DNA of 64,000 nt, from contig CANQOQ010000002.1 of assembly GCA_947625495.1 (NCBI GenBank), positions 122,306 through 186,305 of the forward strand. The letters are read 5' to 3'. Positions 6,151-62,201 of the stretch are shown here, piece by piece; within the stretch, counting starts at the first letter, position 1, and every line of letters starts with the position of its first letter. The notes under the pieces were generated by a model, which worked only from the letters and a program-made list of their open reading frames with translations, was not told the origin of the DNA and did not search any database. Both the position numbers and the translations under genes were made by a program. This stretch comes from Candidatus Gastranaerophilales bacterium (GTDB lineage: Bacteria > Cyanobacteriota > Vampirovibrionia > Gastranaerophilales > Gastranaerophilaceae).

Positions 6151-6176
6151 ATTGCTTTCCTTTCTTTTTTAAATAA

Positions 6177-6205
6177 ATTATAGTGACATGTTGAAATTTT
6201 AACAA
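6177..6205 (-). promoter_or_regulatory. sigma70-like promoter for the HSP20-like gene
   Basis: On the minus strand: TTGTTA, 17-nt spacer, TATAAT, about 25 nt upstream of the ATG at 6150. Confidence 0.4.
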
Positions 6206-6217
6206 TATACTTTTGTT

Positions 6218-6526: not shown

Positions 6527-6828
6527 TTTCTATACCCCGTAATAACTTTTAATTTACACACTTCCATATATCCCAAAAATGTTCAGGGATATATTAAGTT
6601 TAAATTTATTTTAAACCTGATAAAATATACCAAGGTATAATATTTTAGTTGTATAATCAGGCTATTTTTTTTAATTTAAAAAAAATAATTGTAATAATCA
6701 ATATAATAAAAAATACTATTATTATTGAGTTTTAGCCCGGATATAAAGAATATATTAAAAAAAACGGAAATAGCAAATTTTCGGTTTATAATAAAATCGA
6801 AAGTTGAGAAATAATAAAGAGGCATTAT

Positions 6829-12670: not shown

Positions 12671-13387
12671 CTATGTCTGCCTTGTCCTTGTCTTCATCCA
12701 CTCTTCTTTTGGCTGGTCTGAAACTATCCTGCCGTCTTTAAAACGGATTACCCGTTTGCAGTATTCCGCAATATCAGGTTCATGTGTTACGAGTACAATA
12801 GTCTTACCCGTCTTATTATTAAGATTTACAAAAAATTCCATAACCTCGATACTGGTCTTGGTATCAAGATTACCCGTAGGCTCATCCGCCAGAATTAAAG
12901 GTGCATCGTTAACTATGGCACGGGCTATGGCAACTCTCTGCTGCTGACCGCCTGACATCTGGTTTGGCATGTGGTCTTCTCTGTTTTCCAAACCTACTAT
13001 TTTTAAAGCTTCCCTCGCCCTTTTATGGCGTTCTTCTTCAGGTACTCCTTTATATATCATCGGCAACTCTACATTATCAAGTGCGGATGTCCTTGAAATT
13101 AAATTAAATCCCTGAAAAACAAATCCGAGTTTTAAATTTCTTATATCAGACAACTCATCAGGCTTTAAAGATAATACGTCAACACCGTCAAGGTAATAAC
13201 TGCCCGAATTTGGCTTATCAAGTGTGCCTAACATATTCATGCAGGTTGATTTACCTGAACCGGATGTTCCCATAATCGCAACAAACTCGCCTTTTTCTAT
13301 ACTTAATGAAACATCATTAAGTGCATTAAAGCTTTCTTCACCTGTTTTGTAGGTTTTTATTGCATGTTTTACTTCAATAAAACTCAT
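12671..13387 (-). CDS. ABC transporter ATP-binding protein (MacB/LolD-like)
   Basis: Walker A GTSGSGKST, signature LSGGQQQR, Walker B ILADEPTGNLD. Confidence 0.92.
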   Translation of the reverse strand: MSFIEVKHAIKTYKTGEESFNALNDVSLSIEKGEFVAIMGTSGSGKSTCMNMLGTLDKPNSGSYYLDGVDVLSLKPDELSDIRNLKLGFVFQGFNLISRTSALDNVELPMIYKGVPEEERHKRAREALKIVGLENREDHMPNQMSGGQQQRVAIARAIVNDAPLILADEPTGNLDTKTSIEVMEFFVNLNNKTGKTIVLVTHEPDIAEYCKRVIRFKDGRIVSDQPKEEWMKTRTRQT

Positions 13388-13394
13388 TTCTTGC

Positions 13395-14534
13395 CTATAA
13401 TCTCGGTACTCTCATATTTTGTTTTTGCTTGCCTGATAAAACTTTGCCTGTGTATACCTTGTCGCCTGCTTTTATTTCATCCGATATTATCTGCGTATAT
13501 GATTCGTTGCTTACTCCTGTTTCGATATCAATACGGACAGGCTTGCCTTTTTTATCTATCCAAATGCCTTTTTTCTCATATTTTTGTTTATTGCCTTCAA
13601 CCGTGAATTTAAGAGCCTGATTCGGAACGGTTAAGACATTTTCTTTTTTATCGGTAATAATTGAAACATTAGCGGTCATGCCCGGTAAAAGCTTGCCCTC
13701 ATCATTTTCAACTTCAATAATAACGGTGTAAGTAACAACATTAGATTCAGTAATCGGTGATAATCTTACCTGAGTGACTTTACCCGTAAAAATACTGTCG
13801 GGGTAGCCGTCAAGAGTGTATTCAACATCCTGACCGACCTTAACTTTACCTATATCAGCTTCCGAAACACTTGTTTCAATCCGCATTTTATTGAGGTCTT
13901 CCGCAACGGTAAATAATGTAGGTGTTTGGAAGCTTGCTGCAACAGTCTGCCCTACTTCTACTTCTTTTGAAATAACAATCCCTTTAACAGGAGAGATGAT
14001 TTTTGTATATCTCATATTGGCGCTTGCCGTATCATAATTAGCTTGCGCTTGCATAATGGAAGCTTTAGATGAAGCTACTTGTGCTAAATCCGATTTATAT
14101 GCTGATTCAGCTGAATCAAGGTCATTTTTTGACACAAGATTTCTTTTATAAAGATTCTTATACCTGTTGTATGTTTTTGTATCATATTCAAGTATGGCTT
14201 GATTTTTTGCCAGAGTTGCTTTTGCATTGTTAATATTTGCAAGACTTTGTTGAAGCTGCGCTTCAAACAAAGATGTGTCAATCTGCGCCAGTAATTGCCC
14301 CTTTTCAACTTCTGAGTTATAGTCAACGTAAATTTCATTTATTAACCCCGAAACCTGTGTACCTATATCAACCGTATTTACGGGTTCAATTGTTCCCGTG
14401 GCTTCAACTATCTGAGTTATTGTTCTGGGCTTTATTTCCTGAGTTATATACTTAACTTTTCCTGTTTTTTTCATAAAAGCAAAAGGAAGTATGATTAATA
14501 TTATTATAATTATTGCGATTATTATTTTTTTCAT
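13395..14534 (-). CDS. efflux periplasmic adaptor (HlyD/MacA family membrane fusion protein)
   Basis: N-terminal anchor, coiled-coil hairpin, beta-barrel motifs (GMTANVSI). Sits in an operon with the ABC and TolC genes. Confidence 0.85.
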   Translation of the reverse strand: MKKIIIAIIIIILIILPFAFMKKTGKVKYITQEIKPRTITQIVEATGTIEPVNTVDIGTQVSGLINEIYVDYNSEVEKGQLLAQIDTSLFEAQLQQSLANINNAKATLAKNQAILEYDTKTYNRYKNLYKRNLVSKNDLDSAESAYKSDLAQVASSKASIMQAQANYDTASANMRYTKIISPVKGIVISKEVEVGQTVAASFQTPTLFTVAEDLNKMRIETSVSEADIGKVKVGQDVEYTLDGYPDSIFTGKVTQVRLSPITESNVVTYTVIIEVENDEGKLLPGMTANVSIITDKKENVLTVPNQALKFTVEGNKQKYEKKGIWIDKKGKPVRIDIETGVSNESYTQIISDEIKAGDKVYTGKVLSGKQKQNMRVPRL

Positions 14535-15949
14535 CTTTCCCCCATAGCCGTTTGAAGGTCAACGAGTGCTACATTGTACCTGAAAATATTTTGAACATAA
14601 TCTCTTTGAGCATTGTTGTAATTTTCTTTAGCGTCCTGAAGTTCTATAAAGTTGCCTAAACCTACTTCATATCTTGCGTCAGCAAGTTCATAGTTTTCAA
14701 GAGTCTGCTTAACTTTTGTGCGCATTAACGGAATATTCTTTTCAAGCTGAATCATGTTAATATAAGCATTTTGAACCTGAAAATATATGTTTTGTTTAAC
14801 TAAATCAACATTTCTTTTTGCAATTTCAAGCTGAGCCTTGCTTTCTTTAATCTTCAATTTAGTGTCCATTATATTAAGATTACTTGTGGTTAAGAATGCG
14901 CCTAAGCTTATTCCGTTAGTGGAATAATAAGAGTTATTCTGCCAGTTGTAACCGACCGAACCGGTTAAGTCGGGCAGGTATGATTTTTTTGTATAGCTTA
15001 ATGCTTCTTTAACGGCATCTTGTGTTGCCATCATGGATAGTAAATCAGGTCTGTTTTTATACGCTTTTTCTACAGATTCTTTAAGCGTATAGGGATATTT
15101 TGTAAACTTATAATTTTGCAAAATATCATTTTTTTCAACCTGCATAGTTAACACAGCGTCTTTTGGTTCTATTGTTCCGTCTTCTTTTGTTGTTGTATTT
15201 GCAATATTTATAAGGTTAATTTCCGCATAGTTTTTATCAAAATTAAAGGTTTCCGTATTTTCAATTTGATAATCGGGCGCATCTACAATATACATAGAGC
15301 TGTTTAAAGCTACAATTGCATTCTGATAAGTATTTTCGGCATTGATTAAACTTATTTTTGCATCTGATAAATATACTTCCTGATTGACCAAATCTATTTT
15401 AGAAACAAGTCCTTCATCAAAAAATGCTTTTGTTCTGTTATACTGCCTTTCATTAACTAAAACATTGGCTTTTTGGATATCAACATTTGCTTTAGCGGCA
15501 AGTACGGCATAATATGCGGATTTAACCGAGTTTGCCGTATTTAAAATCGAGTTTTCCAGGTCAAATTGTGCTGCAATTTTATAGAATTTCTGCATTTTTA
15601 CCTGTGAAAATACTTTGCCGAAACTGTATATCAGCTGGTTTAAAGATACTTGAGCGGAAACATTTTTATTGCTGTTTGAATAGTATTTTGAATCGGCATT
15701 ATTAAAGTTATAGCCTGCACTTGCCCCGATTGAAGGAAAATATCTGGCTTTGCTCTGACCTACCCTTGAATCGTACATTTCTATATACTGCTCATTAATT
15801 TGTATTTCAGGGCTGTTTTTTATGGCAAGTTCAACGCAGTCATTTATTGAAAGCGTATCTCCCGCTTTTATTTCCTCTATTGCGTAAGAAACTGTACCCG
15901 AGCAGGTTAAAATTAATATTAAACCGATTATTTTTATTTTATTAAACAT
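14531..15949 (-). CDS. TolC-family outer membrane efflux protein
   Basis: 472 aa; signal peptide; two OEP-type repeats (QYNRTKAFFDEGLVSKIDL.. and ..ADARYEVGLGNFIELQDA). Confidence 0.8.
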   Translation of the reverse strand: MFNKIKIIGLILILTCSGTVSYAIEEIKAGDTLSINDCVELAIKNSPEIQINEQYIEMYDSRVGQSKARYFPSIGASAGYNFNNADSKYYSNSNKNVSAQVSLNQLIYSFGKVFSQVKMQKFYKIAAQFDLENSILNTANSVKSAYYAVLAAKANVDIQKANVLVNERQYNRTKAFFDEGLVSKIDLVNQEVYLSDAKISLINAENTYQNAIVALNSSMYIVDAPDYQIENTETFNFDKNYAEINLINIANTTTKEDGTIEPKDAVLTMQVEKNDILQNYKFTKYPYTLKESVEKAYKNRPDLLSMMATQDAVKEALSYTKKSYLPDLTGSVGYNWQNNSYYSTNGISLGAFLTTSNLNIMDTKLKIKESKAQLEIAKRNVDLVKQNIYFQVQNAYINMIQLEKNIPLMRTKVKQTLENYELADARYEVGLGNFIELQDAKENYNNAQRDYVQNIFRYNVALVDLQTAMGER

Positions 15950-30314: not shown

Positions 30315-30980
30315 TTGTATTATATGATAAAGTTTTTTGAAAAACTACTTAATTTAATTTATATTCAACCTTGTTATTTTTGTAAATCTTCAAAAGAAGA
30401 TACCTTGTTGTGTTCAAAATGTCATGATAAGATTCATTTTCTCCCTTTGCGTGAATTAAGAAATGAAAACGGCGTAAAAATATACTCTGCCTGCCTTTAT
30501 GACGGAATTATAAAAACTTTAATAAGAGATTTTAAATATCATAATAAAAAAAATCTTGCTTCCGTTATGGCTCAATTAATGTCTGAATACTGGCAAAAAC
30601 TTAATATAAAAGATGATTTTTTATTAATTCCAGTTCCTATTCATAAATCAAGACTTAAACAGAGAAAATATAATCACATGGATATAGCGGTAAAAGAATT
30701 TTCTCTTTTAACAAGTTATAAATATAATACTGATTTTTTGATAAGAATAAAAGATACGCAAAACCAGTATAAACTCAACAGAAAAGAACGTATTGAAAAC
30801 TTAAGAAATGCTTTTGACATTGATGAGACAAAAATGCCCGACTTAGAAACTCCAATATTAATAACGGATGATATAACATCAACAGGCGCAACCTTAAATG
30901 AGATTATAAAACTCTTAAAATCAAAAGGGTATAAAAATATAACGGCATTTACCCTTTCAACTCCGGATATTTGGAATTAA
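30315..30980 (+). CDS. comF: ComF family phosphoribosyltransferase-like protein
   Basis: N-terminal CxxC...C..C zinc finger, R..NL..AF, and C-terminal ILITDDITSTGATL PRT motif. Confidence 0.8.
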   Translation: MYYMIKFFEKLLNLIYIQPCYFCKSSKEDTLLCSKCHDKIHFLPLRELRNENGVKIYSACLYDGIIKTLIRDFKYHNKKNLASVMAQLMSEYWQKLNIKDDFLLIPVPIHKSRLKQRKYNHMDIAVKEFSLLTSYKYNTDFLIRIKDTQNQYKLNRKERIENLRNAFDIDETKMPDLETPILITDDITSTGATLNEIIKLLKSKGYKNITAFTLSTPDIWN

Positions 30981-32269
30981 ATATCAAATCTTTTATAAAT
31001 TTCATTTATGTTTTTTAAATAATCGTCAATGTTAAAACACGATTTTATTTCTTCCGAAGACAGTTTTGATGTTACATCTTTATCGTTTAAAAGATTATCA
31101 ATAAAGCTTTTATTGTTATTGAAGGCGTCAAGTGCATTTCTTTGAACTATTTTATAAGCATCTTCTCTAAGCATTCCTTTTGCGCATAATTTTAATAAAA
31201 CTTTTTGCGAAAATACAATTCCGCCGAAAAGATTTGTATTTTTAAGCATATTATCCTTGTGGACAACGAGGGTTTTTATGGTTTTTTCAAGTCTTGAGAG
31301 CATATAATCAATAAGCACGGATGAATCAGGGAATATAATTCTTTCAACACTACTGTGAGATATATCTCTTTCATGCCAGAGCGGAATATTCTCCATTGCG
31401 GCAATAGAGTTAGCTCTTACAACTCTTGCGAGTCCCGATAAATTTTCGCCCGAAATGGGGTTCTTTTTATGCGGCATAGCGGATGAGCCTTTTTGCGAAG
31501 ATGTAAAACCTTCTTCAACCTCAAGCACTTCTGTCCTTTGTAAGTGTCTTAGTTCAACTGCAACTTGTTCAACGCAGGAAGCTATAAGCGCCAATGCCTG
31601 AATATATTGAGCGTGAATATCTCTTGCAATAACCTGAGTCGAAAATTTAGCAGGTTTTAACCCTAAAATATCGCATGCCAGCTGTTCAACTTTAGGACTT
31701 ATATTGCTGTATGTTCCGACAGGCCCTGAAATTTGACCCACATTAGCTTCCGACAGTGCTTTTTCAAAGTTTCTTTTATTTCTTTCAAATAAATCAATCC
31801 AGCCGCAAAGTTTTACCCCGAATGTTATAGGCTCTGCATGTACACCGTGAGAACGTCCTATACATACGGTATTTTTATGCTCTTTAGCTTTTTCTTTTAT
31901 TGTTTTTATTAAATTGTCGATATCATCAAGGATAATTTTTCCCGCAGCTTTCATTTGAAGCGCAAGAGCAGTATCAATGACATCGGAGCTTGTCATTCCC
32001 ATGTGGATATATCTTGAATTTTCGCCTACATTTTCATTAACGTTTGTTAAAAATGCAATAACGTCGTGATGAACCTGACTTTCAATCTCGTCGATTCTTT
32101 CTACGGAAAAGGAAGCCTTATTTATGATATCATTTAAAACTTCGTCACTTATTTCACCAAGCTTATTATAAGCTTTTACAACGGCAAGTTCTACATCAAG
32201 ATAGTATTTAAACTTGGTTTCAATATCCCAAATTTTTTTCATTTTTTCTCTTGAATATCTCTCAATCAT
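30977..32269 (-). CDS. purB: adenylosuccinate lyase
   Basis: MIERYSREKM start, SSAMPHKKNP signature. The upstream 18 codons of the ORF are judged non-coding. Confidence 0.95.
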   Translation of the reverse strand: MIERYSREKMKKIWDIETKFKYYLDVELAVVKAYNKLGEISDEVLNDIINKASFSVERIDEIESQVHHDVIAFLTNVNENVGENSRYIHMGMTSSDVIDTALALQMKAAGKIILDDIDNLIKTIKEKAKEHKNTVCIGRSHGVHAEPITFGVKLCGWIDLFERNKRNFEKALSEANVGQISGPVGTYSNISPKVEQLACDILGLKPAKFSTQVIARDIHAQYIQALALIASCVEQVAVELRHLQRTEVLEVEEGFTSSQKGSSAMPHKKNPISGENLSGLARVVRANSIAAMENIPLWHERDISHSSVERIIFPDSSVLIDYMLSRLEKTIKTLVVHKDNMLKNTNLFGGIVFSQKVLLKLCAKGMLREDAYKIVQRNALDAFNNNKSFIDNLLNDKDVTSKLSSEEIKSCFNIDDYLKNINEIYKRFDI

Positions 32270-32355
32270 TATTACTTCCTTTTTTAACTTTTTTATTTTA
32301 CAATAACTCCATACAGAGTTCAAGGAATGGAAATAACGCTAAGGAGAGTATAAAG

Positions 32356-33867
32356 ATGGAAAGACAGCCCTTCTTTTATGATATAACGCTTAGAGACGGC
32401 AACCAATCTCTTAAAAAGCCTTGGAACACCTTTGAAAAGGAAATCATATTCAATAATCTGATAGAACTTGGAGCTCAAGGTATAGAAGTAGGTTTTGCTG
32501 CGGCATCCGATATGGATTTTGAAGCCTGCTCAAGATTAGCTTCAATTGCGCCTGATAATACAGTTATTTCTGCCCTTGCAAGAACGGTTAAAAATGATAT
32601 TTTAAAGGCTTTTGAATCAATAAGAAACGCAAAGAAAAAGAGGATTCACACTTTTATAGCTATGAGCCCTTTTAATATGCGATATGTATTGAATAAATCA
32701 CCTGAAGAAGTTAAAAAGACGGCAATTGAAGCTGTTGGATATGCAAAAAGCCTTGTAGGAAATGGCGGAGAGGTACAATTCTCGGTTGAACACTTCGGCG
32801 ATTGCTGTGAAAATATAGATTTTGTTATAGATTCACTTAAAGAGATTGTAAAAGCAGGTGCAAGCGTTATTAATTTACCTAATACGGTAGAAAGAACCTG
32901 CCCTTCAAGATTTGTTAATCTTGTTGAAAAGGTTTATAATGCGCTTCCGAAGGATATAATAATTTCGGTTCACAACCATAATGACCTTGGAATGGCAACA
33001 GCCACAACGGTTGAAAGTTATTTTAAAGGTGCTGTACAGCTTGAATGTGCATTAAACGGGCTTGGAGAAAGAGCGGGAAATACAAATATGTATGAAGTTG
33101 CAGTTGCTCTCCATAATCTCGGCGTGGATGTACCTTTAAATTTATCTAAAATATACGAACTTGCACTTGTAATATCCGATATGTCGGATGTAAAAATATA
33201 TGAAAAAGCGCCTTTAATAGGGCCTGAAGCACTATCACACAGAAGCGGCATACACCAAGACGGTGCCGTAAAAACCAAAGATATGGAAAAAGGTGCATAT
33301 AGACCTATTCATCCGTCTTTAATAGGCAGAAAAGATGATGAAAAACTCGGATTTACTTCGCAATCGGGTAAAACCGCCATATTTGAAATTATTACGGAGG
33401 CAGGTTATCCTATTACACTTTCCGAGGCGCAAAGAATTGTTCCCGTTGCCAAGGAAGAAGCCGAAAAAATCGGAGAACTTACAACACGCAATATTATTGA
33501 TATCTACTACAATAATGTTCTTAATGTTAAAGGTGCATTCAGGTTATGCAATCTTGAAAAACTTGAAGACGAAAAAATTAAACTCAGATTTATGTATAAA
33601 GATAAAGAATACAATATTGAAGTATCTGGTAACGGGCCTGTTGATGCTTGTATTAAAGCTGTTCAAAAGGCAGGATTCGATTGTGAGTTCTTAAATTATG
33701 AACAAAAAGCTTTGAATATGGGTTCTGACGCAAGTGCTATGACTATTATGCAGTTTAAAGCACCGAACGGACAGACCGTTATTTCCAGAGGTTGTGATGA
33801 AAGTACCGTTAAAGCTAATATTAAAGCCATATTTAACGGACTTAACATTATTGAAAATATGAAGTAA
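32356..33867 (+). CDS. leuA: 2-isopropylmalate synthase
   Basis: ATG at 32356 follows aaggagag. DITLRDGNQ, HNHNDLG and a C-terminal LeuA dimer/regulatory domain. Confidence 0.92.
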   Translation: MERQPFFYDITLRDGNQSLKKPWNTFEKEIIFNNLIELGAQGIEVGFAAASDMDFEACSRLASIAPDNTVISALARTVKNDILKAFESIRNAKKKRIHTFIAMSPFNMRYVLNKSPEEVKKTAIEAVGYAKSLVGNGGEVQFSVEHFGDCCENIDFVIDSLKEIVKAGASVINLPNTVERTCPSRFVNLVEKVYNALPKDIIISVHNHNDLGMATATTVESYFKGAVQLECALNGLGERAGNTNMYEVAVALHNLGVDVPLNLSKIYELALVISDMSDVKIYEKAPLIGPEALSHRSGIHQDGAVKTKDMEKGAYRPIHPSLIGRKDDEKLGFTSQSGKTAIFEIITEAGYPITLSEAQRIVPVAKEEAEKIGELTTRNIIDIYYNNVLNVKGAFRLCNLEKLEDEKIKLRFMYKDKEYNIEVSGNGPVDACIKAVQKAGFDCEFLNYEQKALNMGSDASAMTIMQFKAPNGQTVISRGCDESTVKANIKAIFNGLNIIENMK

Positions 33868-33870: not shown

Positions 33871-35913
33871 ATGAAAAAATTATTTAAAATATTATTAATA
33901 TTATGTTTATTTTTAAATTACACCCTTCCCGTATCGGCATTTTCATCAGGGTTTATTCTGCACGAGAAAATTATTGATGAGATTCAAACCGAAAATGTTG
34001 TTTCAAAAGATGTTGAAAAAAGGCTAAAATCTTCAATTGCAAAGGTATATGGCGAAAATCAAAAAGACGAAATATATATAAATATATTAAAAATAATAAA
34101 AGAAACAAGATTAAAACGCAGTGATTCTTTAAAAAGAGAAGACTTAAAACGCAGTGATGACTGGTATAAAGATGAAATTATATATATGTTTTATGTTGAC
34201 CAGTTTGGCGTCGGCAGTGATAATCTGCCTAATACATTCAGAAAAACTGCCCAAATGCTTCCTTATTTAAAAGATTTAGGTGTAACAACAATTTATATGC
34301 TGCCTTTCGTGGATTCACCAATGGGAGATGCGGGATTTGACGTGAGAAACCCTAGAGATGTCCGTAAAGACTTAGGCGGTATGAGCGAATTTAAATACTT
34401 TATTCGTGAAGCAAAAAATCATGGGCTGAAAATAAAATCAGACTTAGTGCTGAATCACTTTTCCGATAGTCATGAATGGTTTAATGAGATAAAGAACGGT
34501 AATTTGGATAAGTTGGATTACTTCCTTGTAACGGATAAGGAACCCGAAAAAACGATATATAAAGATGAAAAACTCGGGTATATCGCTGAATATAAACACG
34601 ACAGCGGAAAAATCTCAAAAAGAAGGCTTATATTCCCCGAAATAACGGATTCTCATTACCGAAAAGAAACAATAAACGGCAAAGACTACTATTTTTACCA
34701 TACTTTTTATCCGTTTCAACTTGATATCAACTGGGAAAATCCGAAAGTATTGTATTACAATTTGGAAACAATAGCGTTTTGGGCAAATATAGGAATTGAT
34801 ATATTCAGAATGGATGCTATACCGTACCTTATAAAAGAAGAAGGCACCAACGGTGAAAACAGTCCTAAAACACATGAAATAATAAAGATTTTAAGTACGT
34901 TTTTGCAGGAAATTGCGCCTCGTTCCGTTATTCAATCCGAGGCATGCCAGCCTCCTAAAAAGATAGTTCCTTATTTTGGCAGTGAAAAACAGGTGGAACT
35001 AAATATATCGGGAGAAAATAAGCATTTATTAAGAACAAATGAAGTTCAAATAGCTTACCATTTTCCTTACATGCCTGCAATATGGGCTTCTTTGGTATCG
35101 GGTAACAGTTCATATTTCTGGCAGATACATAAAAAAACTCCTCAAATACCTGCTTCAAGCGAATGGGCAGTATTCTTAAGGGTGCATGATGAACTTACGC
35201 TTGAAATGGTAAATAATCAAATTCGTGAACTTATATATGACGGTTTGGCGGATAAGGGTGCAGAGTTTAGAAAAGGCTACGGCGTAAGCGGCAGAATGGC
35301 TGATTTCTTGGATAATGACCCTGAACGTATTAATATGGCATTTTCAATTCTTCTTTCTTTAAAAGGGATTCCCGTAATATATTACGGTGACGAAATAGGA
35401 AGCCGTAATAACTATTCTTTTGCCCAAAGAAGGGCTAAATACAGAGAAAGAAAAAATAAAACAAAAAACGGCGAAAAAACAGAAATGCTGTCTTATTTTG
35501 ACAGCAGAGACATTCATAGAGGTGCAATTAAAAAATCTGCTTTTTATAGAGCTATGAATAATTCCAATAACTTTAATTCAAGAATTTATAAAAAAGTTAA
35601 AAGATTAATTCAGGTAAGAAAAGCCTATCCTACACTGTCTAGAGGTGATTTTAGCGAGGTCAAATCAAGTAAAAAAGAGGTTTTATCTTATTTAAGAAAA
35701 GGAAAAAATGACAGAATACTTATAATTAATAATCTTTCCGATGACAGAATTTATACGGAGCTTGAATCTTCTGACTTTAATTTCGATAAGTTATCGGGTG
35801 AAATTGAAATGAAAGAATTAATTTCGATGAAAAATAAAGTCTTAAAAATTGATAATAAAAAATTAATAGTAAGATTAAGACCTTATGAGTCTTTGTGGTT
35901 AAGTTTTCCTTAA
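33871..35913 (+). CDS. GH13 alpha-amylase family enzyme (TreS/amylosucrase-like) with signal peptide
   Basis: DWYKDEIIY, DLVLNHFSD, FRMDAIPYL and RVHDELTLEMV catalytic-region motifs. Confidence 0.85.
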   Translation: MKKLFKILLILCLFLNYTLPVSAFSSGFILHEKIIDEIQTENVVSKDVEKRLKSSIAKVYGENQKDEIYINILKIIKETRLKRSDSLKREDLKRSDDWYKDEIIYMFYVDQFGVGSDNLPNTFRKTAQMLPYLKDLGVTTIYMLPFVDSPMGDAGFDVRNPRDVRKDLGGMSEFKYFIREAKNHGLKIKSDLVLNHFSDSHEWFNEIKNGNLDKLDYFLVTDKEPEKTIYKDEKLGYIAEYKHDSGKISKRRLIFPEITDSHYRKETINGKDYYFYHTFYPFQLDINWENPKVLYYNLETIAFWANIGIDIFRMDAIPYLIKEEGTNGENSPKTHEIIKILSTFLQEIAPRSVIQSEACQPPKKIVPYFGSEKQVELNISGENKHLLRTNEVQIAYHFPYMPAIWASLVSGNSSYFWQIHKKTPQIPASSEWAVFLRVHDELTLEMVNNQIRELIYDGLADKGAEFRKGYGVSGRMADFLDNDPERINMAFSILLSLKGIPVIYYGDEIGSRNNYSFAQRRAKYRERKNKTKNGEKTEMLSYFDSRDIHRGAIKKSAFYRAMNNSNNFNSRIYKKVKRLIQVRKAYPTLSRGDFSEVKSSKKEVLSYLRKGKNDRILIINNLSDDRIYTELESSDFNFDKLSGEIEMKELISMKNKVLKIDNKKLIVRLRPYESLWLSFP

Positions 35914-35992
35914 TTAATATTTCTTTATATAAATAAAAAATGCTAAAGAAATAATCCTATGATACCGATATATTCCATGGTATGGAGTATGT

Positions 35993-38020
35993 ATGGCAGA
36001 TTCTGTAAATAATAACGGCATAGATAACGCTTATAAATATAATAATCCCGAAATATCCAAATATGATACAGATAATGACGGAAAAATTTCCGTATTTGAA
36101 GTTGAGCAAATAACTGATGAAAATTCTAAGTCGGAATTGGCTGTTTTGCTTGAAAATGATATGACCGAACAGTATAGTGAAGAAATAACCGAAGAAAAAA
36201 TACAATCACTTGAAAGCAAATTATCGGAGGCAAAAAATAAACAAGGTGTAGTAGGTTCACTTTGGAACGGAATAAAAAATATAACCGGACTCGGTTCAAG
36301 TACAAATAAGTGCGAACAAGCTATCGAGGATTATAAAAACGGAAAAATCAGCTACGATGAAGCAGAAAGTATAATTTCGGGCTTTGACTCCAAACAGGAA
36401 AGTTCTGTAAATCTTGCAGCAAATATATTAACAGGTGTAGCGGCGACTTTAGTAGTTGGTTCTGCGGTATTAACAGGCGGACTGTCACTGGGTGTAATAG
36501 CAGGTGCAGCTGCAGTCGGAGCAGGAACAAAGGCTGGACTTAAATTTTTAGACAGAGCCACAAATAAAGTAGAAGGTGATGCTGCAGATGCCAAACAAAT
36601 AGCTAAAGATTCACTATCAGGTGCCGTGGATGGTGCGGTTTCCGTTGCAACAATGGGAATGGGAACTACTGCTGTTACTGCAAAGACCGCGGTTCAACAA
36701 ACACTAAAAGAAACCGTAAAACAAGGAATAATTTCAGGTGCTAAAGCAGGTGCCGTTTCAGGTGCCGTAACAGGTGCAAGTGACTATACCATTGAAGCCG
36801 TTTTAGAAGAAGATGTTGAATTTAATGCTCAAGATTTAGCTAAAAGTACATTAATGAATGCGGCAGGCGGTGCTATAGCAGGTGGTGCCATGGGCGGAAT
36901 TTCTTCCGGCATTCAATATAAAAAAGCCTTTAAAATAGCTAATGAATTGAAAGATCAAACAAATAAAATGCATGAAACCTATTCATCATATATTGATGAA
37001 GCTCAAGAGCAGATATCAAATGAGTTTTCCGAGCTTACAAGTGTTAAAAATGAAAATATTACCGCAAGAGTTAAAAGTAAAAATTCGGTTTTAAGTAAAT
37101 TGGCAAAAAAATATGATAGCGGCGAACTCAAATCTACGTCAATGGAAGATTGTATAGATGCAATAGGAGATGCATACGGAACAAGAATTCAGATGGAAAA
37201 TCTCCGGCCGAATGAAGCAAAAGAAATTATTGAAGATTGTTTATACGGTTATAATATCACATACGAACAGTTTATAAAGTATATGAATGGTGATACTTCT
37301 ACTCTTGATGATGCTGGTATTAATACTATTAATGAAATAAAAGATACCGTTATTGATTTACTAAAAGAACGCCAATCGCAGGAAGTTGTTGATCAGCTTA
37401 TTGATGCGATAGGTAACGGCAGAATGACTATTACCGAATTAAACAATTACGGTGATAATATTTCTTCTTATTTTACCGCAAAACAATTGCAGGAAATAGC
37501 TGATGCGTACTACATTGCAACAGGAAATAAACTTGAACTCGTTTCATTAGATAATTTCCATAATGCTTCAGGGTCAAAAGTTACCATAGATGATAGTTTT
37601 GATTATACAATAAATTTAGATACAAAAGGTGCAGTAAAAGATTCAGGATATGCGTCATCTCAAATGAATGTTAAACACAAATTCGCTGACGGTACAATAG
37701 GTAACGGCGAACTTCAAATCCGTGGTACCGAAGTAAATAAATTTGCTGATGTGGAGCATATTCCCTATGATATAAAAACAGGTAAGATTAAAGCTTCTGA
37801 TGAAACTTATTCTGATATTTATAAAATTATAGAAAAAATGTCTGATAAAACTTATACAAAATATAATGAATTCCTTACTAAAACATATCAATATTTAAGG
37901 CTAAAAGAGCTTGGGATTGAAACTGCTCCTCCTGTATTTAGTGATAAATCACTTTCTGAAGAAGCACTCAGATTATTAAGCCCCGAAGGTTTATTGGAAA
38001 TAAGTGCAAGAAAACACTGA
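35993..38020 (+). CDS. polymorphic-toxin-like protein: EF-hand loop, Gly/Ala-rich glycine-zipper region, C-terminal RelA/SpoT-like (RSH/toxSAS-like) domain
   Basis: DTDNDGKISVFE (aa 25-36). Gly/Ala-rich helices at aa ~140-310. RVKSKNSVLSKL (359), DAYGTRI (393), GYASSQ (552) and ELQIRGTEVNKFADVEHIPYD (573) occur in the canonical RSH synthetase order. No signal peptide. Confidence 0.7.
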   Translation: MADSVNNNGIDNAYKYNNPEISKYDTDNDGKISVFEVEQITDENSKSELAVLLENDMTEQYSEEITEEKIQSLESKLSEAKNKQGVVGSLWNGIKNITGLGSSTNKCEQAIEDYKNGKISYDEAESIISGFDSKQESSVNLAANILTGVAATLVVGSAVLTGGLSLGVIAGAAAVGAGTKAGLKFLDRATNKVEGDAADAKQIAKDSLSGAVDGAVSVATMGMGTTAVTAKTAVQQTLKETVKQGIISGAKAGAVSGAVTGASDYTIEAVLEEDVEFNAQDLAKSTLMNAAGGAIAGGAMGGISSGIQYKKAFKIANELKDQTNKMHETYSSYIDEAQEQISNEFSELTSVKNENITARVKSKNSVLSKLAKKYDSGELKSTSMEDCIDAIGDAYGTRIQMENLRPNEAKEIIEDCLYGYNITYEQFIKYMNGDTSTLDDAGINTINEIKDTVIDLLKERQSQEVVDQLIDAIGNGRMTITELNNYGDNISSYFTAKQLQEIADAYYIATGNKLELVSLDNFHNASGSKVTIDDSFDYTINLDTKGAVKDSGYASSQMNVKHKFADGTIGNGELQIRGTEVNKFADVEHIPYDIKTGKIKASDETYSDIYKIIEKMSDKTYTKYNEFLTKTYQYLRLKELGIETAPPVFSDKSLSEEALRLLSPEGLLEISARKH

Positions 38021-38048
38021 CAAAAAAAATAGTTATATGTTTTAAATA

Positions 38049-38057
38049 TGTTATAAT
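38049..38057 (+). promoter_or_regulatory. possible extended -10 element (TGtTATAAT) ahead of the 145-aa ORF
   Basis: tgttataat at 38049-38057. Such strings are frequent by chance in AT-rich DNA. Confidence 0.25.
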
Positions 38058-38071
38058 ATAAGGATAAAAAA

Positions 38072-38509
38072 ATGAATATAAATAATAACAATAATCAAAT
38101 AAATACTTCGTTTTCAGGGTTGTTAAAAAAAGATTTAAATAAAATGACAAAAGATGAAAAAATGGATATATTAGTTGAAAAAGCTTCAAACCTTCTGGTA
38201 CAGAGAGCCGAAAGGGAAGTACCCGATAACGGGAAGTTCAGCAGAATTTTTGTTGCTTTTGATATTCCTGATACTCAAAATGAAGCATTAATCAGTTTTG
38301 AACATGATGAAATCGAACCTAAGGATATGAGAAGACTTTCTATTGGCGTTCACAGAGCTAACAGTGACAGAATTACTTCAAAATATATCGTTAAAGGTAC
38401 TAAAAAGGAATTAATTGAATATTTAAAGAAAACTGAATTTAAAAAAGAATTTACGGATACTGTTAATTCGCTTTCTCACTCCGTTGATAACTATTATTCT
38501 TCATTATAA
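38072..38509 (+). CDS. hypothetical cytoplasmic protein, candidate immunity/antitoxin for the RSH-domain protein
   Basis: 145 aa; RBS aagga; no signal peptide; no known motif. Function is inferred from position only. Confidence 0.5.
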   Translation: MNINNNNNQINTSFSGLLKKDLNKMTKDEKMDILVEKASNLLVQRAEREVPDNGKFSRIFVAFDIPDTQNEALISFEHDEIEPKDMRRLSIGVHRANSDRITSKYIVKGTKKELIEYLKKTEFKKEFTDTVNSLSHSVDNYYSSL

Positions 38510-38581
38510 TAAACTATATACTTGTAAAATATCTTTGAAGCAATTACAATAAAGTGAGTTTAGTTTTGAGGATATTTTAAT

Positions 38582-40498
38582 ATGGGAAATTGTGAAGAAC
38601 AAAAAAAATCACATTTTACAAGTTTAGAAGCAAAGTCAATAATAAATGAGGCTTTAAAAGTATTAGGGAAAAAACATCTGGCATTTATAGCACATGCAAA
38701 CAGTTTTCCTGCTGAAACGGGTAAAAATACCGGATTTGGCAGTGTTAATTCAAATGCGGCAAAAAAGTTAATTGATTTTTTATCAGGCGTATTTACCGAT
38801 ATTCAGCTTGGACCTGCAGGAAAAACAAAATCTATTGATGCTTCGCCGTATACGGGTACAATTTTTTCAAATAACCCTTTATTTATAGATTTAGAGCAAC
38901 TGACAACCGATGAATGGTTTAATATTCTGTCGCTTGAAACTTATGACAGAATTGTTGAAAATAATCCGAATAAAAATACAAACAGAACAGCTTATTCATA
39001 TATTTTTGATGCACAGGATGAAGCATTAAAAGAGGCTTTTGAAAACTTTAAAAAAGTTAACTGCCCCGATTTAAAAAATCAGTTTGAAAAGTATAAAGAA
39101 GATAATAAATTCTGGCTTGAAAAAGATTCTTTGTATGAAGCTTTAACAGTTGAACACAACAACGATTATTGGCCTATGTGGAATTCGGAGGTTGATAAAA
39201 ATCTTCTTAATCCTCAAAATGAAGAACAAAAAGCTCAATATACACAAAGAATAAAAGAACTTAAAGAACAGTATAAAGATGTAATAGAGTATTATTCATT
39301 CTGCCAGTTCTTAATTTATGTTCAAAATAATAAATCAAGACAGTATGCCCAGACAAAAGGTATGAAAATGATAGCCGACAGGCAAGTTGCATTTTCAGAC
39401 CGTGATAATTGGGCATATCAGTCATATTTCTTAAAAGGCTGGTACTTGGGATGTCCGCCTGATTATTTCTCGGAAGACGGTCAAATGTGGGGATTCCCCG
39501 TAATGGATCCTGAAAAGCTCTTTAATCAAGACGGCTCACTTGCTGAAGGCGGATTGTTAATGAAAGAGCTTTATAAGAAAATGTTTACCGAAAACCCCGG
39601 CGGTGTAAGAATTGACCACATGGTAGGTTTAATTGACCCTTGGGTTTATGTTGCGGGCAAAAAACCTAAAATAGAAGAAGGTGCGGGCAGATTATATTCA
39701 TCTCCCGAACATCCCGTTTTATCAAGATATGCTATTGCAACTAAAGATGACTTAAATTATGAAGTTGAAGCCGATAAAGAAGAAAGAATACTTAAGTTAA
39801 CCGAAGAACAGGTTAAACGCTACGGTGCGCTTGTCGAAAAAATAGTTATCGGTGCCGCTAAAGAAGTCGGACTTGATAAAGATTCCATTGTTTGCGAGGA
39901 TTTGGGCACTTTGACTTATCCTGTTGTAAGTGTTATGAAAGAATATGACCTTCAAGGTATGAAATTGATTCAGTTTGTTGTACCTGAAAAGCCTGATCAC
40001 CCTTACAGATGTAAAAATATTACTCCGAGAAGCTGGGCTATGGTCGGTACTCACGATAATGAACCTATTGCAATGTGGGCTGACGCTACGGTTAATACGG
40101 AAGCAGGGTATTTAAACGGTAAAAATCTTGCTGAGGACTTATGGCCTGATGCTGATGATGAAGAAAGAGAAGCAATTGCCGTAAGAATTTCTAAAGATGC
40201 TCCTTTCTTAACTCAAACCAAGTTTGTTGAGTTATTTGCCTGCAAGGCTGAAAATATTCAGATTTTCTTTACCGACTTTTTAGGGTTGTATGATGTATAT
40301 AACCGCCCCGGAACTTCAGGTGATAAAAACTGGTCATTAAGAATTCCCGATAACTATGATGAAGTTTATGCAAATAATTTAAGAGAAGGTAAAGCATTAA
40401 ATCTTCCTTTAATCTTAAAGCTTGCCATAGAAGCAAGAGGGCATGAGTTTGCTTCTCAACATCAGGATGTTATCCAAAAACTTGAAAGTATAATATAG
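38582..40498 (+). CDS. malQ: 4-alpha-glucanotransferase (GH77)
   Basis: GSVNS, SPY.G, WGFPV, VRIDHMVGL and VGTHDN motifs; 638 aa. Confidence 0.85.
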   Translation: MGNCEEQKKSHFTSLEAKSIINEALKVLGKKHLAFIAHANSFPAETGKNTGFGSVNSNAAKKLIDFLSGVFTDIQLGPAGKTKSIDASPYTGTIFSNNPLFIDLEQLTTDEWFNILSLETYDRIVENNPNKNTNRTAYSYIFDAQDEALKEAFENFKKVNCPDLKNQFEKYKEDNKFWLEKDSLYEALTVEHNNDYWPMWNSEVDKNLLNPQNEEQKAQYTQRIKELKEQYKDVIEYYSFCQFLIYVQNNKSRQYAQTKGMKMIADRQVAFSDRDNWAYQSYFLKGWYLGCPPDYFSEDGQMWGFPVMDPEKLFNQDGSLAEGGLLMKELYKKMFTENPGGVRIDHMVGLIDPWVYVAGKKPKIEEGAGRLYSSPEHPVLSRYAIATKDDLNYEVEADKEERILKLTEEQVKRYGALVEKIVIGAAKEVGLDKDSIVCEDLGTLTYPVVSVMKEYDLQGMKLIQFVVPEKPDHPYRCKNITPRSWAMVGTHDNEPIAMWADATVNTEAGYLNGKNLAEDLWPDADDEEREAIAVRISKDAPFLTQTKFVELFACKAENIQIFFTDFLGLYDVYNRPGTSGDKNWSLRIPDNYDEVYANNLREGKALNLPLILKLAIEARGHEFASQHQDVIQKLESII

Positions 40499-59293: not shown

Positions 59294-59768
59294 ATAATGT
59301 AATAATAATGAATATTTTTACAATTATTTACATACAGCTAAAATCATGTTCAAATCATGGTTTTAGCGGTTTTAAACTTTGCGAAAAGAGCTGATTTTAT
59401 TGATAAAGGATTGAAGAACTCAAAAAAAGATTTATACTGAAAATATAACAAACTTTAAAAAAAGACTATTGATAAATGGATGAGAATATACATTCCGTTG
59501 CTAACATAATAATGAAAAAAATATCAGGAAAGGAGAAAATAAATGGGAACTTGGGATGAGTCTGAACATCCACGTGATGACGAAGGGAAATTTACATATA
59601 AAAATGGAGGTAGTGATAGTGTTAAATCCGATGAAGAAAAAATGCAAAGACGAGCAGACCTTCTATATCCGTCAATGAAAGATAAAGAACCCAAAACAGA
59701 TTATTCAACTGTCGGACTTGAAAATTACAAAAAAGAAAAAGATTCTGTTACCGGCGGAGCTGCAAATA
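59294..59768 (+). repeat. 475-bp module copy 1 (249-bp leader plus the first 75 codons of the muramidase gene)
   Basis: Aligns colinearly with 61207-61680 with one indel and about a dozen substitutions by hand alignment. Confidence 0.9.
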
Positions 59769-60244
59769 CGGAAGATTGGCAAAAAGATAAGGATTTTAAT
59801 AAAATTTTAGAATATTTATATCCGCAAGAAGGAGGATATAGTAATAGAAAAGCAGATTTAGGCGGACCTACAAAACTTGGGGTTACTCAGACTACTTATG
59901 ACTGGTATAATAAACGTAATAAAATTCCGACTCAGAATGTGAAAAATATAACTAAAGGGGAAGCAACAAAAATATATTATGATTATTTTTGGAAAGAATC
60001 TGGTGCTAGTTCAATTAAAGATAAGGGTATGGCATTGATGTATTTTGATGCTGCCGTTAATCATGGTCCATATTATGCAAAAAAATATTATAAAGAATCA
60101 AATGGCAATTATAATAAGTTTGTTGAACTACGGAAACAACATTATGAGCGTATGAAAAATAATATACCTCAACAAAAAGAAAATTATAATGGTTGGATTA
60201 ACAGATTAAATAATATAGATAAATATATAGAAAAGAATTATTAA
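59543..60244 (+). CDS. GH108-like N-acetylmuramidase with conserved 75-aa N-terminal module (effector candidate 1)
   Basis: YPQEGGYSNRKADLGGPTKLGVTQ (GH108 EGGY catalytic motif). C-terminal YFD..VN.G / GW.NRL segment is PG_binding_3-like. RBS aggaaaggag. No signal peptide. Confidence 0.8.
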   Translation: MGTWDESEHPRDDEGKFTYKNGGSDSVKSDEEKMQRRADLLYPSMKDKEPKTDYSTVGLENYKKEKDSVTGGAANTEDWQKDKDFNKILEYLYPQEGGYSNRKADLGGPTKLGVTQTTYDWYNKRNKIPTQNVKNITKGEATKIYYDYFWKESGASSIKDKGMALMYFDAAVNHGPYYAKKYYKESNGNYNKFVELRKQHYERMKNNIPQQKENYNGWINRLNNIDKYIEKNY

Positions 60245-61210: not shown

Positions 61211-61680
61211 TGTAATAATAATGAATATTTTTACAATCATTTACATACAGCTGAAATCATGTTCAAATCATGGTTTTAGCGGTTTTAAACTTTGCGAAAA
61301 GAGCTGATTTTATTGATAAAGGATTGAAGAACTCAAAAAAAGATTTATACTGAAAATATAATAAACTTTATAAAAAGACTATTGATAAAGGGATGTGAAT
61401 ATACATTGCGTTACTAACATAATAATGAAAAAATATCAGGAAAGGAGAAAATAAATGGGAACATGGGATGAGTCTGAGCATCCACGTGATGAAAATGGAA
61501 AATTTACATACAAAAACGGAGGTAGTGATAGTGTTAAATCCGAAGAAGAAAAAATGCAAAGACGAGCAGACCTTCTATATCCGTCAATGAAAGATAAAGA
61601 ACCAAAAACAGATTATTCAACTGTCGGACTTGAAAATTACAAAAAAGAAAAAGATTTTGTTACCGGCGGAGCTGCAAATA
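61207..61680 (+). repeat. 475-bp module copy 2
   Basis: See 59294-59768. Confidence 0.9.
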
Positions 61681-62201
61681 TTCAAATGGATAATGAAGAA
61701 TATATAAAAAATTTAAAAAATTTAGCTCAAACTGATTCGGATTTAAGATTTTTAAACAGTTTAGATTATATTTTAAAAGAAGAAGGAGGATATAATAATT
61801 ATAAAGGAGATAAACCAACAAATTTAGGAGTAACTCAAGATATTTATAATATATATAGAAAAGAAAAAGGTTTACCTTCCCAAGATGTGAAAAAAATTAA
61901 TATAAAAGAAGCAACTCAAATTTATCATAAATATTTTTGGAAACCATCTAAAGCAGATAAACTTCAACATCCTTTAGATTTAGTTTATTTTGATATGTAT
62001 ATTAATAGTAATCCTAGGGAAGCGAAAAATGTATTAAATCGTTCTGATAACGATGTTTATAAATTTATAGAAAATCGTAGAAAATTTTATGATGATGTTA
62101 TTAAGTCAAAACCAATAAAGGAAAAATTTAGAAAAGGCTGGTATAATCGACTTGATAATTTAAAAAAATATATTGATGAGTACTATGCGAGTATAAAATA
62201 A
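61455..62201 (+). CDS. GH108-like N-acetylmuramidase with the same N-terminal module and a diverged catalytic domain (effector candidate 2)
   Basis: First 75 aa are 71/75 identical to the 59543 gene. Then LKEEGGYNNYKGDKPTNLGVTQ, FWKPS, VYFD and GWYNRLDNLKKYI. Confidence 0.8.
   Translation: MGTWDESEHPRDENGKFTYKNGGSDSVKSEEEKMQRRADLLYPSMKDKEPKTDYSTVGLENYKKEKDFVTGGAANIQMDNEEYIKNLKNLAQTDSDLRFLNSLDYILKEEGGYNNYKGDKPTNLGVTQDIYNIYRKEKGLPSQDVKKINIKEATQIYHKYFWKPSKADKLQHPLDLVYFDMYINSNPREAKNVLNRSDNDVYKFIENRRKFYDDVIKSKPIKEKFRKGWYNRLDNLKKYIDEYYASIK

Follow-up and report, generated by a model that had tools for sequence, protein, structure and literature searches.

A Hypervariable Accessory Gene Pair of Gastranaerophilales Pairs a Divergent RelA/SpoT-like Synthetase on a Glycine-Zipper Module with a Candidate Immunity Protein

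Toxins built on the RelA/SpoT-homolog (RSH) synthetase fold are a recent and growing theme, exemplified by the type VI secretion system (T6SS) effector Tas1/Apk1, the phage MuF toxin Apk2, the toxSAS toxins, and the exported alarmone synthetases. Apk1/Tas1 and Apk2 are adenosine 3′-pyrophosphokinase (Apk) toxins, and the binding-type immunities of Apk toxins are strain-specific (Paulet et al. 2025, PMC12226406). The exported alarmone synthetases carry one of a set of catalogued export domains, which comprises the Sec signal, WXG/LXG, XopAD, MuF, DUF4157, and Rhs/PAAR (Ahmad et al. 2025, PMC12691689). Here, we describe two adjacent genes, encoding proteins of 675 and 145 aa, in a 64-kb stretch of DNA (the window, to which coordinates refer unless a locus is named) from Candidatus Gastranaerophilales (Melainabacteria), a gut lineage of non-photosynthetic relatives of cyanobacteria. 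We think it rather likely that the pair is an accessory, hypervariable polymorphic toxin-immunity cassette in which an RSH pyrophosphokinase with a RelP/RelQ-like signature is delivered by an undescribed glycine-zipper module (N-module). The analysis established the fold and motif conservation of the RSH domain, together with the accessory status and allelic hypervariability of the pair, and showed that the partner co-varies with this domain and that the N-terminal part is shared in modular fashion. RSH toxins on modular carriers are already known; what is new is the carrier, the host lineage, and the RSH subfamily with its insertion.

The C-terminal domain of the 675-aa protein is, by its motifs and its model, a divergent RSH synthetase predicted to have its catalytic motifs intact. 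Regular expressions recovered the four synthetase motifs, Syn1 to Syn4, in canonical order at aa 359-369, 393-398, 552-557, and 573-593, the arrangement that defines the RSH superfamily by motif and that the preliminary description of this DNA had anchored at R359, D393, G552, and E573. Two residues depart from the RSH consensus: position 557 has Q for H, and position 578 has G for T. Among 74 aligned homologs, R359, K361, S365, K369, D393, G396, G552, Y553, E573, Q575, R577, E588, H589, and Y592 are invariant, and motif conservation far exceeds chance. The protein has 111 homologs in all, and every one with a taxon-specific source name comes from Candidatus Gastranaerophilales. Although a single-sequence phmmer search of the PDB returned nothing relevant, the 74-homolog family profile placed small alarmone synthetases in all of its top six positions, aligned in two collinear blocks (Syn1-2 and Syn3-4), with RelP/YwaC first (E 0.0017), followed by 2be3, 3l9d, and RelQ/YjbM. 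The AlphaFold2 model has a mean predicted local distance difference test score (pLDDT) of 73 overall and above 90 over aa 310-675. All of its top 25 Foldseek matches in the PDB are RelP or RelQ, with probabilities of 0.51 to 1.00 (1.00 for most of the top 18) and target-normalized template modeling scores (TM-scores) of 0.40 to 0.61, which corresponds to the RSH synthetase fold, and among viral models a RelA/SpoT protein from a phage ranks first. Profile and structure searches thus bear out the fold that had been proposed from the motifs. Syn2 and Syn3 are separated by a family-specific insertion that is acidic (isoelectric point, pI, 4.2) and in which K458, Q461, N485, and Y486 are invariant, the last two within its conserved block; it is missing in RelP/RelQ, whose two profile blocks are contiguous. 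Scanning viral contigs with the family alignment found no relatives, which gives no support to an origin on a phage (MuF-like). Stand-alone RSH-like proteins of ~340 aa, without N-module and without 145-aa partner, are encoded a few kilobases from malQ in other Gastranaerophilales (L077, 14282-15352; L082, 11610-12695, minus strand; L083, L084, L085, L087, and L090). They share the ENY block, ExQxxG, and a C-terminal Y..Y.R.KE with the domain described here and may represent its cellular ancestor or a paralog.

The likely acceptor of this domain can be approached through signature residues. Apk enzymes carry RYT in Syn2, GxN in Syn3, and YH in Syn4, and guanosine-type RSH enzymes carry AVR, SxH, and IR at the same places (PMC12226406). 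The 675-aa protein, with G-T-R, S-x-Q, and I-R, sides with the guanosine type and not with Apk; this is a lean and not a firm call, because exchanging signature residues fails to convert specificity, which the residues alone do not set (PMC12226406). Its structural neighbors, RelP/RelQ rather than Tas1, agree with the guanosine-type signatures. The preliminary description had called the domain toxSAS/Tas1-like: the RSH fold stands, and the likeness to Tas1 does not, given that the nearest structures are RelP/RelQ and the signatures are of the guanosine type, not those of Tas1/Apk1. The domain is also acidic (pI 4.8; median 4.9 across 109 homologs), and such a surface argues, weakly and by an expectation of our own, against a tRNA substrate; on this heuristic only, a tRNA-targeting mechanism was ranked low. 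Exported RSH enzymes that make only (p)ppGpp are strongly growth-inhibitory in the cytoplasm (PMC12691689), and by analogy a (p)ppGpp-type toxin is plausible here.

The two genes lie where they had first been placed, with 51 nt between them (open reading frame, ORF, list), and Pfam and NCBIfam searches of the flanks identify GH13 and malQ as their neighbors. Shine-Dalgarno-like sequences precede both ATG codons, GGAG at 35984-35987, 5 nt ahead of the longer ORF, and AAGGA at 38060-38064, 7 nt ahead of the shorter, for which a ribosome-binding site of its own had been claimed. For a survey of the insertion site, the malQ protein was searched against one genome per species (GTDB representatives), which gave 80 loci, and GH13, both toxin halves, and the small ORF were then searched for in them; the occupancy comparison was limited to species whose malQ is 81-99% identical. 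The order GH13, toxin, small ORF, malQ recurs in seven loci (L014, L015, L018, L030, L049, L051, and L055), and in L029 and L054 the pair lies upstream of malQ with no GH13 detected. At the empty sites of four related species (L016, L026, L040, and L075), the GH13 stop codon is followed by malQ after 81-90 bp. The junction element 'CTTGTAAAAT...TA(T/C)AAT' before malQ is present in occupied and empty sites. Because GH13 adjoins malQ in these four species, the pair reads as a true accessory insert and not as a universal core gene, which answers the synteny comparison that the preliminary description had called for. No flanking repeats or mobility genes were seen at the cassette. At two occupied sites, L015 (6650-7000) and L055 (6850-7000), an extra 150-370 nt with a conserved 'TTCACGATAAGCT(A/G)AAAGTGTGAGT' stretch separates the small ORF from malQ. 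Loci labeled uncultured Muribaculaceae (L027, L030, L034, L052, L054, and L093) have malQ loci 81-86% identical to Gastranaerophilales (63% for L093), and the cassette is present in two of these records, L030 and L054; these bins are probably mislabeled as to taxon.

The N-terminal part of the 675-aa protein falls outside the known architectures of RSH toxins, as had been claimed for it: it matches no trafficking domain in Pfam, is none of the export domains catalogued in PMC12691689, and is previously undescribed. Residues 11-135 are predicted by AlphaFold to form a helical bundle that includes the EF-hand-like loop YDTDNDGKISVFEVE, which is kept in some close homologs (P0036 and P0042). Residues ~140-310 are rich in Gly and Ala, are modeled at a pLDDT of ~30 (aa 140-308), and include the hydrophobic hairpin along with three glycine zippers. 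The zipper glycines (G210/214/222, G245/249/253/257/261, and G293/297/301) are nearly invariant in the alignment of 74 homologs. The first hydrophobic stretch of the protein, at aa 141-177, is also the sole such segment (Kyte-Doolittle 19-residue mean 1.3-1.9, centers aa 146-170); as no hydrophobic segment is present at the N-terminus, there is no Sec-type signal peptide, in line with the preliminary description. Glycine zippers are typical of proteins that insert into membranes or form channels, as well as of several bacteriocins and effectors, and on this analogy we infer that the N-module acts in export and/or in membrane insertion or translocation at the target cell. A census of the module, in which aa 71-311 were searched by phmmer against 1.84 billion cluster representatives, found at least 356 clusters at E ≤ 1e-3, of which 201 were at E ≤ 1e-10. 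RSH motifs are present in only ~10 of 133 newly found N-module proteins. Pfam recognizes an ADPrib_exo_Tox C-terminus in 4 of the 67 non-RSH members scanned and in P0106 (best E 2.6e-17), and PRTase-CE, the polymorphic-toxin DSP-PTPase (Tc-R-P), PTP-NADK, ApoL, HD, and DnaJ in others, with the majority of C-termini not recognized. The same N-module is thus joined to RSH, ADP-ribosyltransferase, kinase-like, and other C-termini, as expected of a polymorphic toxin. Scanning metagenomes with a tight N-module alignment gave 3 loci. Foldseek found no solved structure in the PDB with the fold of the N-module, a PHROGs scan of the 675-aa protein gave one weak match to a family of unknown function and nothing else, and the protein contains neither of the known pre-toxin junction motifs VENN and PT-TG. 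The module-only proteins P0159, P0163, P0166, P0176, P0179, P0194, and P0208 share a short conserved tail at the C-terminus, such as '..ANS..S..YK(L/I).N.R...', which suggests that the glycine-zipper module may be able to act alone, perhaps as a pore former.

This sharing of the N-module bears on the leading alternative, a toxSAS-type module that acts inside the producer, either as a toxin-antitoxin system or in abortive infection. In it, the glycine-zipper region would anchor the RSH enzyme to the producer's own membrane, and the 145-aa antitoxin would keep the enzyme inactive until phage infection or stress sets it free. The adjacent small partner gene, the tight 51-nt spacing, and the lack of a recognizable secretion signal all suit such a module, the accessory and hypervariable character of the locus fits defense islands too, and FaRel2, CapRel, and PhRel work in this way (PMC12691689). 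However, PADLOC matches neither protein, no other defense genes were found among the annotated neighbors of the cassette, viral contigs hold no relatives, and the acidic surface is unlike what we would expect of a tRNA-modifying toxSAS. Moreover, fusion of the same ~310-aa N-module to an ADP-ribosyltransferase exoenzyme and to a polymorphic-toxin phosphatase is a pattern of exported effectors that differs from known toxSAS toxins, and we consider the intracellular module unlikely.

The preferred toxin-immunity reading draws further on the divergence of the pair between and within species. In comparison with two other species, the flanking proteins are 75-89% identical, the toxin 46-64%, and the small ORF 55-60%. 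Compared with the conspecific locus L014, nucleotide identity is ~98% in the flanks, drops to 63-92% over 36000-38500, and is back to 99% at 38500; it is ~87% in the N-module, 63-78% in the RSH domain (73% overall), and 67-87% in the small ORF (81% overall), and a 285-nt indel lies at the junction of module and linker. At the protein level, the cassette is 64-75% identical and the flanks 99%. Synonymous divergence (dS) between the two strains is 0.09-0.12 in the flanking genes (GH13, malQ, and PTPS), where the ratio of nonsynonymous to synonymous divergence (dN/dS) is 0.04-0.07, and rises to 0.40 in the N-module (dN/dS 0.19), 0.94 in the RSH domain (0.24), and 0.50 in the 145-aa ORF (0.34), 4 to 9 times the level of the flanks. 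This excess of synonymous divergence indicates that the two strains carry old divergent alleles brought in by recombination and not merely fast-evolving genes. Polymorphism within a species that is concentrated in toxin and immunity genes, with recombination, is a mark of polymorphic toxins, and polymorphic toxin-immunity loci are reportedly typified by hypervariability whose breakpoints fall at the borders of the cassette and at the junction with the toxin domain.

The same figures weigh on the possibility that the 675-aa protein is a non-toxic, membrane-associated alarmone synthetase that serves, with a regulatory partner, the cell's own (p)ppGpp signaling, perhaps tied to glycogen/maltodextrin metabolism or motility. 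Such a role would be in keeping with the housekeeping RelP/RelQ enzymes as nearest structures, the guanosine-type signatures, the stand-alone ~340-aa relatives in other Gastranaerophilales, and a locus that is stable between GH13 and malQ in several species and has a conserved upstream element. Yet the pair is missing in close relatives with an intact GH13-malQ junction, exotoxin-type domains occur on the same N-module, and conspecific amino-acid identity of 64-75% with dS up to 0.94, set against flanks at 99% and 0.1, is hard to reconcile with a housekeeping regulator, which makes this role improbable.

The candidate immunity protein of 145 aa has 24 detectable homologs and, as had been noted from its sequence, no recognizable domain, with Pfam, NCBIfam, PADLOC, and PHROGs searches all empty. 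Its AlphaFold model (pLDDT 87) consists of a helix, a four-stranded antiparallel sheet, and then further helices. It has no sequence match in the PDB, and its best folds are weak, Pur-alpha/Whirly-like matches (E 0.07); these searches do not support its being a known immunity fold, an HD-type alarmone hydrolase, or a type III secretion system (T3SS) chaperone. A homolog lies directly 3′ of the toxin gene in 17 of the 17 RSH-bearing loci examined with the family profile, interrupted by an in-frame stop in L102, and the distant homologs P0084, P0087, and P0108 occupy unrelated genomic contexts, three in all, with the small ORF always downstream. Pairwise identities from 13 distinct loci (78 pairs) were compared by a partial Mantel test with permutation p. 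The 145-aa ORF co-varies with the RSH domain when the N-module is controlled for (r = 0.73, p = 4e-4), and its correlation with the N-module given the RSH domain is 0.23 (p = 0.13). The partner is missing after the non-RSH carriers P0106 (ADP-ribosyltransferase), P0109, P0110, and P0111 and likewise after PRTase carriers, so that, with a kinase-like exception, the downstream gene changes with the toxin domain as in polymorphic toxin systems. The co-variation supports a putative immunity role aimed at the catalytic domain, and not a role as chaperone of the N-module. At L102, an RSH toxin (60-2039) is followed by the interrupted 145-aa homolog (2122-2511) and a stand-alone 272-aa ORF (2545-3363); the stop may make the gene a pseudogene, or it may be an error, the coverage of the contig being 2.5x, and the 272-aa ORF, with ADP-ribosyltransferase-like STS and EEE motifs, is possibly an orphan toxin module.

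An effector used against the animal host, protists, or the extracellular milieu, with the 145-aa protein as its export chaperone or as a safeguard against premature activity, would fit the eukaryote-flavored C-termini on this N-module (ADPrib_exo_Tox, DnaJ, ApoL, and DSP-PTPase), several of them without an adjacent small gene, as well as the EF-hand-like Ca2+ loop, the acidic surface, and the example of the extracellular alarmone synthetase SaEAS of Streptomyces (PMC12691689), but has little probability, given that the partner gene tracks the RSH domain and not the N-module, that toxin and partner co-diversify within a species as expected from kin competition, and that enzymes of the SaEAS type carry a Sec signal and lack a partner gene (PMC12691689).

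A polymorphic toxin and its immunity protein, as the preliminary description had proposed, are thus the reading to which the computational evidence points: hypervariability with breakpoints at the borders, a partner that co-varies with the RSH domain, and an N-module shared with exotoxin C-termini. The toxin would comprise a lineage-specific N-module (helical head with EF-hand-like loop, hydrophobic hairpin, and three glycine zippers) that serves export and/or insertion into the target membrane, a linker of variable length, and a C-terminal RSH-fold pyrophosphokinase with all catalytic motifs present. Inside a neighboring bacterium, the RSH domain would move pyrophosphate from ATP to the 3′-OH of a purine nucleotide. 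The signature residues favor a guanosine-type acceptor, in which case runaway (p)ppGpp synthesis would result, and the outcome would be growth arrest or depletion of nucleotide pools in the target. The producer would be shielded by the 145-aa protein, which would bind and block the cognate RSH domain.

Several observations speak against the toxin-immunity reading. Direct hmmscan of the 675-aa protein against Pfam and NCBIfam, the check first proposed for it, gave no RelA_SpoT match and reached no curated RSH profile, and the RSH assignment therefore rests on motifs, family profile, and predicted structure. The homologs P0036 and P0095 come close to the PF04607 cutoff of 27, at 25.7-26.0 bits; a gathering score is an operational threshold and not a biochemical definition, and we count the domain as a divergent member of the family. 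The E-values of the family profile in the PDB are marginal (0.0017-0.04), because the ~150-aa insertion splits Syn2 from Syn3. No known trafficking domain, PAAR/Rhs and MuF included, was detected in the N-module by Pfam at E ≤ 1, the gene annotation of the window shows no secretion-system genes beside the cassette, and by tblastn the window holds neither a further copy nor an orphan piece of either protein. Many members of the N-module family are module-only (270-345 aa with a short conserved tail) or lack an adjacent small gene, so that the module may serve some purpose other than delivery. Gene-wide dN/dS is below 1 in all parts of the cassette. The partner family is not strictly RSH-specific, in that P0107, whose N-module is joined to a kinase-like C-terminus ('DHNIINGKIIDFG'), has a distant homolog of the 145-aa protein encoded after it (25% identity, E 3e-10); at the kinase-like N-module locus L095, the toxin-like gene (4418-6307; GxGxxG-like loop, 'DHNIINGKIIDFG') precedes a 138-aa partner homolog (6403-6819; E 3e-10). 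This exception may reflect either a versatile immunity fold, as in SUKH-type families, or recognition by the partner of a feature common to both enzymes. Physical linkage could partly explain the co-variation of partner and RSH domain. Finally, that the domain is toxic, which product it makes, that its partner protects by binding, and how the protein is exported are all inferred.

The region upstream of the toxin gene offers a possible, if tenuous, hint at an export route. The putative sigma-28 (FliA)-like promoter motif listed in Table 1 is the single match in the window, where 0.19 would be expected by chance. The pattern TAAAG-W3-N11/12-NNCGATAW occurs 6-34 nt upstream of the orthologous start codon in at least 8 distinct loci, as TAAAGAAA-N11-GCCGATAA in L030 (4221) and TAAAGTTT-N11-GCCGATAT in L018 (4249), with similar versions in L003/L015, L004 (6192), L029 (3770), L049 (4339), and L055 (4285). 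About half of the 26 matches in 1.28 Mb of Gastranaerophilales DNA lie at the RSH toxin gene. The sigma-28/FliA consensus is TAAAGTTT-N11-GCCGATAA, to which the motifs of the orthologs conform almost perfectly. Upstream of flagellin genes (L012 and five contigs with flagellin P0328), no exact match was found, only a related '(G/A)CCGTCAA' element. Good sigma-28-like motifs also precede two uncharacterized proteins without Pfam domain (L060, 9096-11219; L027, 1344-2327), of which the first, coiled-coil and Gly-rich, has 708 aa and is encoded immediately 3′ of malQ, and the second, of 328 aa, has a variable center between helical ends. Distant N-module genes have a different, partly palindromic upstream element, 'TATATAC(T)TTTAT..TATATA' (L006 at ~7940-7975, L008 at ~7945-7975, L010 at ~4030-4055, and L011 at ~3230-3260), possibly serving as operator or alternative promoter. 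Flagella are complete in some Gastranaerophilales, and others have kept just part of the gene set; in some, the export apparatus persists without a complete flagellum (PMC4040986); Campylobacter exports non-flagellar proteins through its flagellar apparatus (PMC2764114). Because the motif is missing upstream of the flagellin genes examined and distant homologs have a different element, we treat the flagellar route as a low-probability hypothesis. The broader proposal, in which the N-module (at least 356 clusters) is an undescribed delivery system of gut Melainabacteria that inserts into membranes, brings the C-terminal enzyme across, has mostly unrecognized payloads, and is independent of type V, VI, and VII secretion systems (T5SS, T6SS, and T7SS), MuF, extracellular contractile injection systems (eCIS), and Sec, and in which its RSH members are transcribed by sigma-28 and exported by flagellar type III secretion, is distinctly unlikely.

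The remainder of the window is ordinary chromosome, with dnaN, pgk, dnaK, lysS, der, a mur/ftsW cluster, mutS2, and a MacB/HlyD/OEP set, and its G+C content stays at ~30-38% along the whole length, the cassette showing no shift in composition. The MacB/HlyD/OEP set encodes a tripartite exporter (MacB-type ABC permease, HlyD-family adaptor, and OEP/TolC-like outer-membrane protein) ~20 kb from the cassette (11441-15949, minus strand), and no link between it and the toxin gene was found. A pair of GH108 (lysozyme-like) paralogs occupies 59543-60244 and 61455-62201, with 1.2 kb between the genes. The longest ORFs of an adenylosuccinate lyase gene (30977-32323, minus strand) and a divergent HMGL/LeuA-like gene (32251-33867, plus strand) overlap by ~70 nt at their 5′ ends; homologs begin at aa 11-12 of the former and aa 2-33 of the latter, and the true start codons are therefore probably further in.

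Table 1. Coordinates of the gene pair, its predicted parts, and its borders in the window
Feature	Coordinates	Strand	Basis or remarks
Flanking GH13 (TreS-like) gene	33871..35913	+	PF00128 E 1e-49; TIGR02456 E 7.5e-111 yet below TIGR02456 cutoff
Accessory two-gene cassette	35914..38521	+	From GH13 stop codon to conserved malQ promoter-like element
Sigma-28 (FliA)-like promoter motif TAAAGAAA-N12-ACCGATAT, putative	35944..35971	+	21 nt upstream of toxin ATG
Toxin-like gene, 675 aa	35993..38020	+	ATG start; N-terminal module, linker, C-terminal RSH domain
EF-hand-like Ca2+-binding loop, aa 22-40	36056..36112	+	YDTDNDGKISVFEVE; Pfam EF-hand_1/6/5 E 2e-4 to 2.5e-3, below cutoffs
Conserved N-terminal module, aa 71-311	36203..36925	+	Helical head, then Gly/Ala-rich glycine-zipper region; phmmer, alignment
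Hydrophobic stretch, aa 141-177, possible transmembrane hairpin	36413..36523	+	Kyte-Doolittle
RSH synthetase-like domain, aa ~346-675	37028..38017	+	Motifs, family profile, AlphaFold/Foldseek
Syn1 motif R359-x-K361-xxx-S365-xxx-K369	37067..37099	+	Invariant; aligns with RelP RVKSFESIVNK
Syn2 motif D393-AYG-T-R398 (catalytic Asp)	37169..37186	+	Regular expression, alignment, PDB profile match
Family-specific insertion of ~150 aa between Syn2 and Syn3, aa 402-550	37196..37642	+	K458, Q461, 'ITELNNYG..SSYFT' block conserved
Syn3 motif G552-Y-A-S-S-Q557 (GYxSxH position)	37646..37663	+	Regular expression, alignment, PDB profile match
Syn4 block E573-LQIRG...EH..YD593 (catalytic Glu)	37709..37771	+	Aligns with RelP EIQIRTIAMDFWASLEHKIY
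Candidate immunity gene, 145 aa	38072..38509	+	ATG start; predicted helix, four-stranded sheet, helices
malQ promoter-like element TTGTAA-17-TACAAT, right border of insert	38522..38550	+	Kept in occupied and empty sites
Flanking GH77 4-alpha-glucanotransferase malQ	38582..40498	+	PF02446 E 2e-65

The locus extends the theme of RSH toxins to the non-photosynthetic gut relatives of cyanobacteria; a literature search yielded no paper in which Melainabacteria and small alarmone synthetases both appear. With hundreds of candidate effectors, the N-module is an entry point to competition among uncultured gut bacteria and to a pool of new toxin domains, and the cassette itself is a clean natural experiment, with occupied sites, empty sites, and divergent conspecific alleles at one chromosomal position. 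Its RelP/RelQ-like signature bears on whether overproduction of (p)ppGpp can itself serve as a weapon.

Among described systems, RelP and RelQ (SAS2/SAS1; PDB 6ewz, 6fgj, 5ded, and 5dec) are the best structural and profile matches, with collinear Syn1-Syn4 and the catalytic Asp and Glu kept. They are stand-alone cytoplasmic homotetramers of ~210 aa. They are not known to have a partner gene, whereas the protein described here has a ~330-aa domain with an insertion, Q for H in Syn3, G for T after ExQxR, and a ~310-aa module. The toxSAS enzymes (FaRel, FaRel2, PhRel, and CapRel) are, as here, encoded beside a partner, with toxicity and neutralization found there and predicted here. CapRel carries its antitoxin as a fused domain. 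The toxSAS toxins are compact and intracellular, and several pyrophosphorylate tRNA (PMC12691689), in contrast to the long N-module and acidic domain of the 675-aa protein, which is not a compact toxin recognized by defense or toxin-antitoxin profile libraries and has no PADLOC match. With the classical polymorphic toxins (CdiA-CT/CdiI, Rhs, and LXG), the locus shares a conserved N-terminus, a breakpoint at the junction, variable C-termini, and an immunity gene that lies downstream and varies along with the toxin; it differs in having no known trafficking domain, no VENN or PT-TG motif, no orphan arrays at the locus, and many module-only members. Tas1/Apk1-Tis1 (the T6SS PAAR effector of Pseudomonas aeruginosa PA14) and the Apk2 MuF phage toxins follow the same layout, with a C-terminal RSH toxin on a polymorphic-toxin architecture and a cognate immunity. 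They have a PAAR/Rhs or MuF domain and Apk signatures, neither of which is present here, and the 50 best Foldseek matches do not include Tas1. The exported alarmone synthetases differ from the Gastranaerophilales protein in their catalogued export domains, as opposed to an uncatalogued N-terminus in a diderm Melainabacterium and an insertion of ~150 aa between Syn2 and Syn3. Nonetheless, the T7SS-associated AaEAS of Amycolatopsis azurea (PMC12691689) has, as does the locus described here, a C-terminal RSH domain, an N-terminus that specifies export, and a small downstream ORF of putative immunity function, and it makes (p)ppGpp only and is still growth-inhibitory (PMC12691689), which matches the guanosine-type signature of the 675-aa protein.

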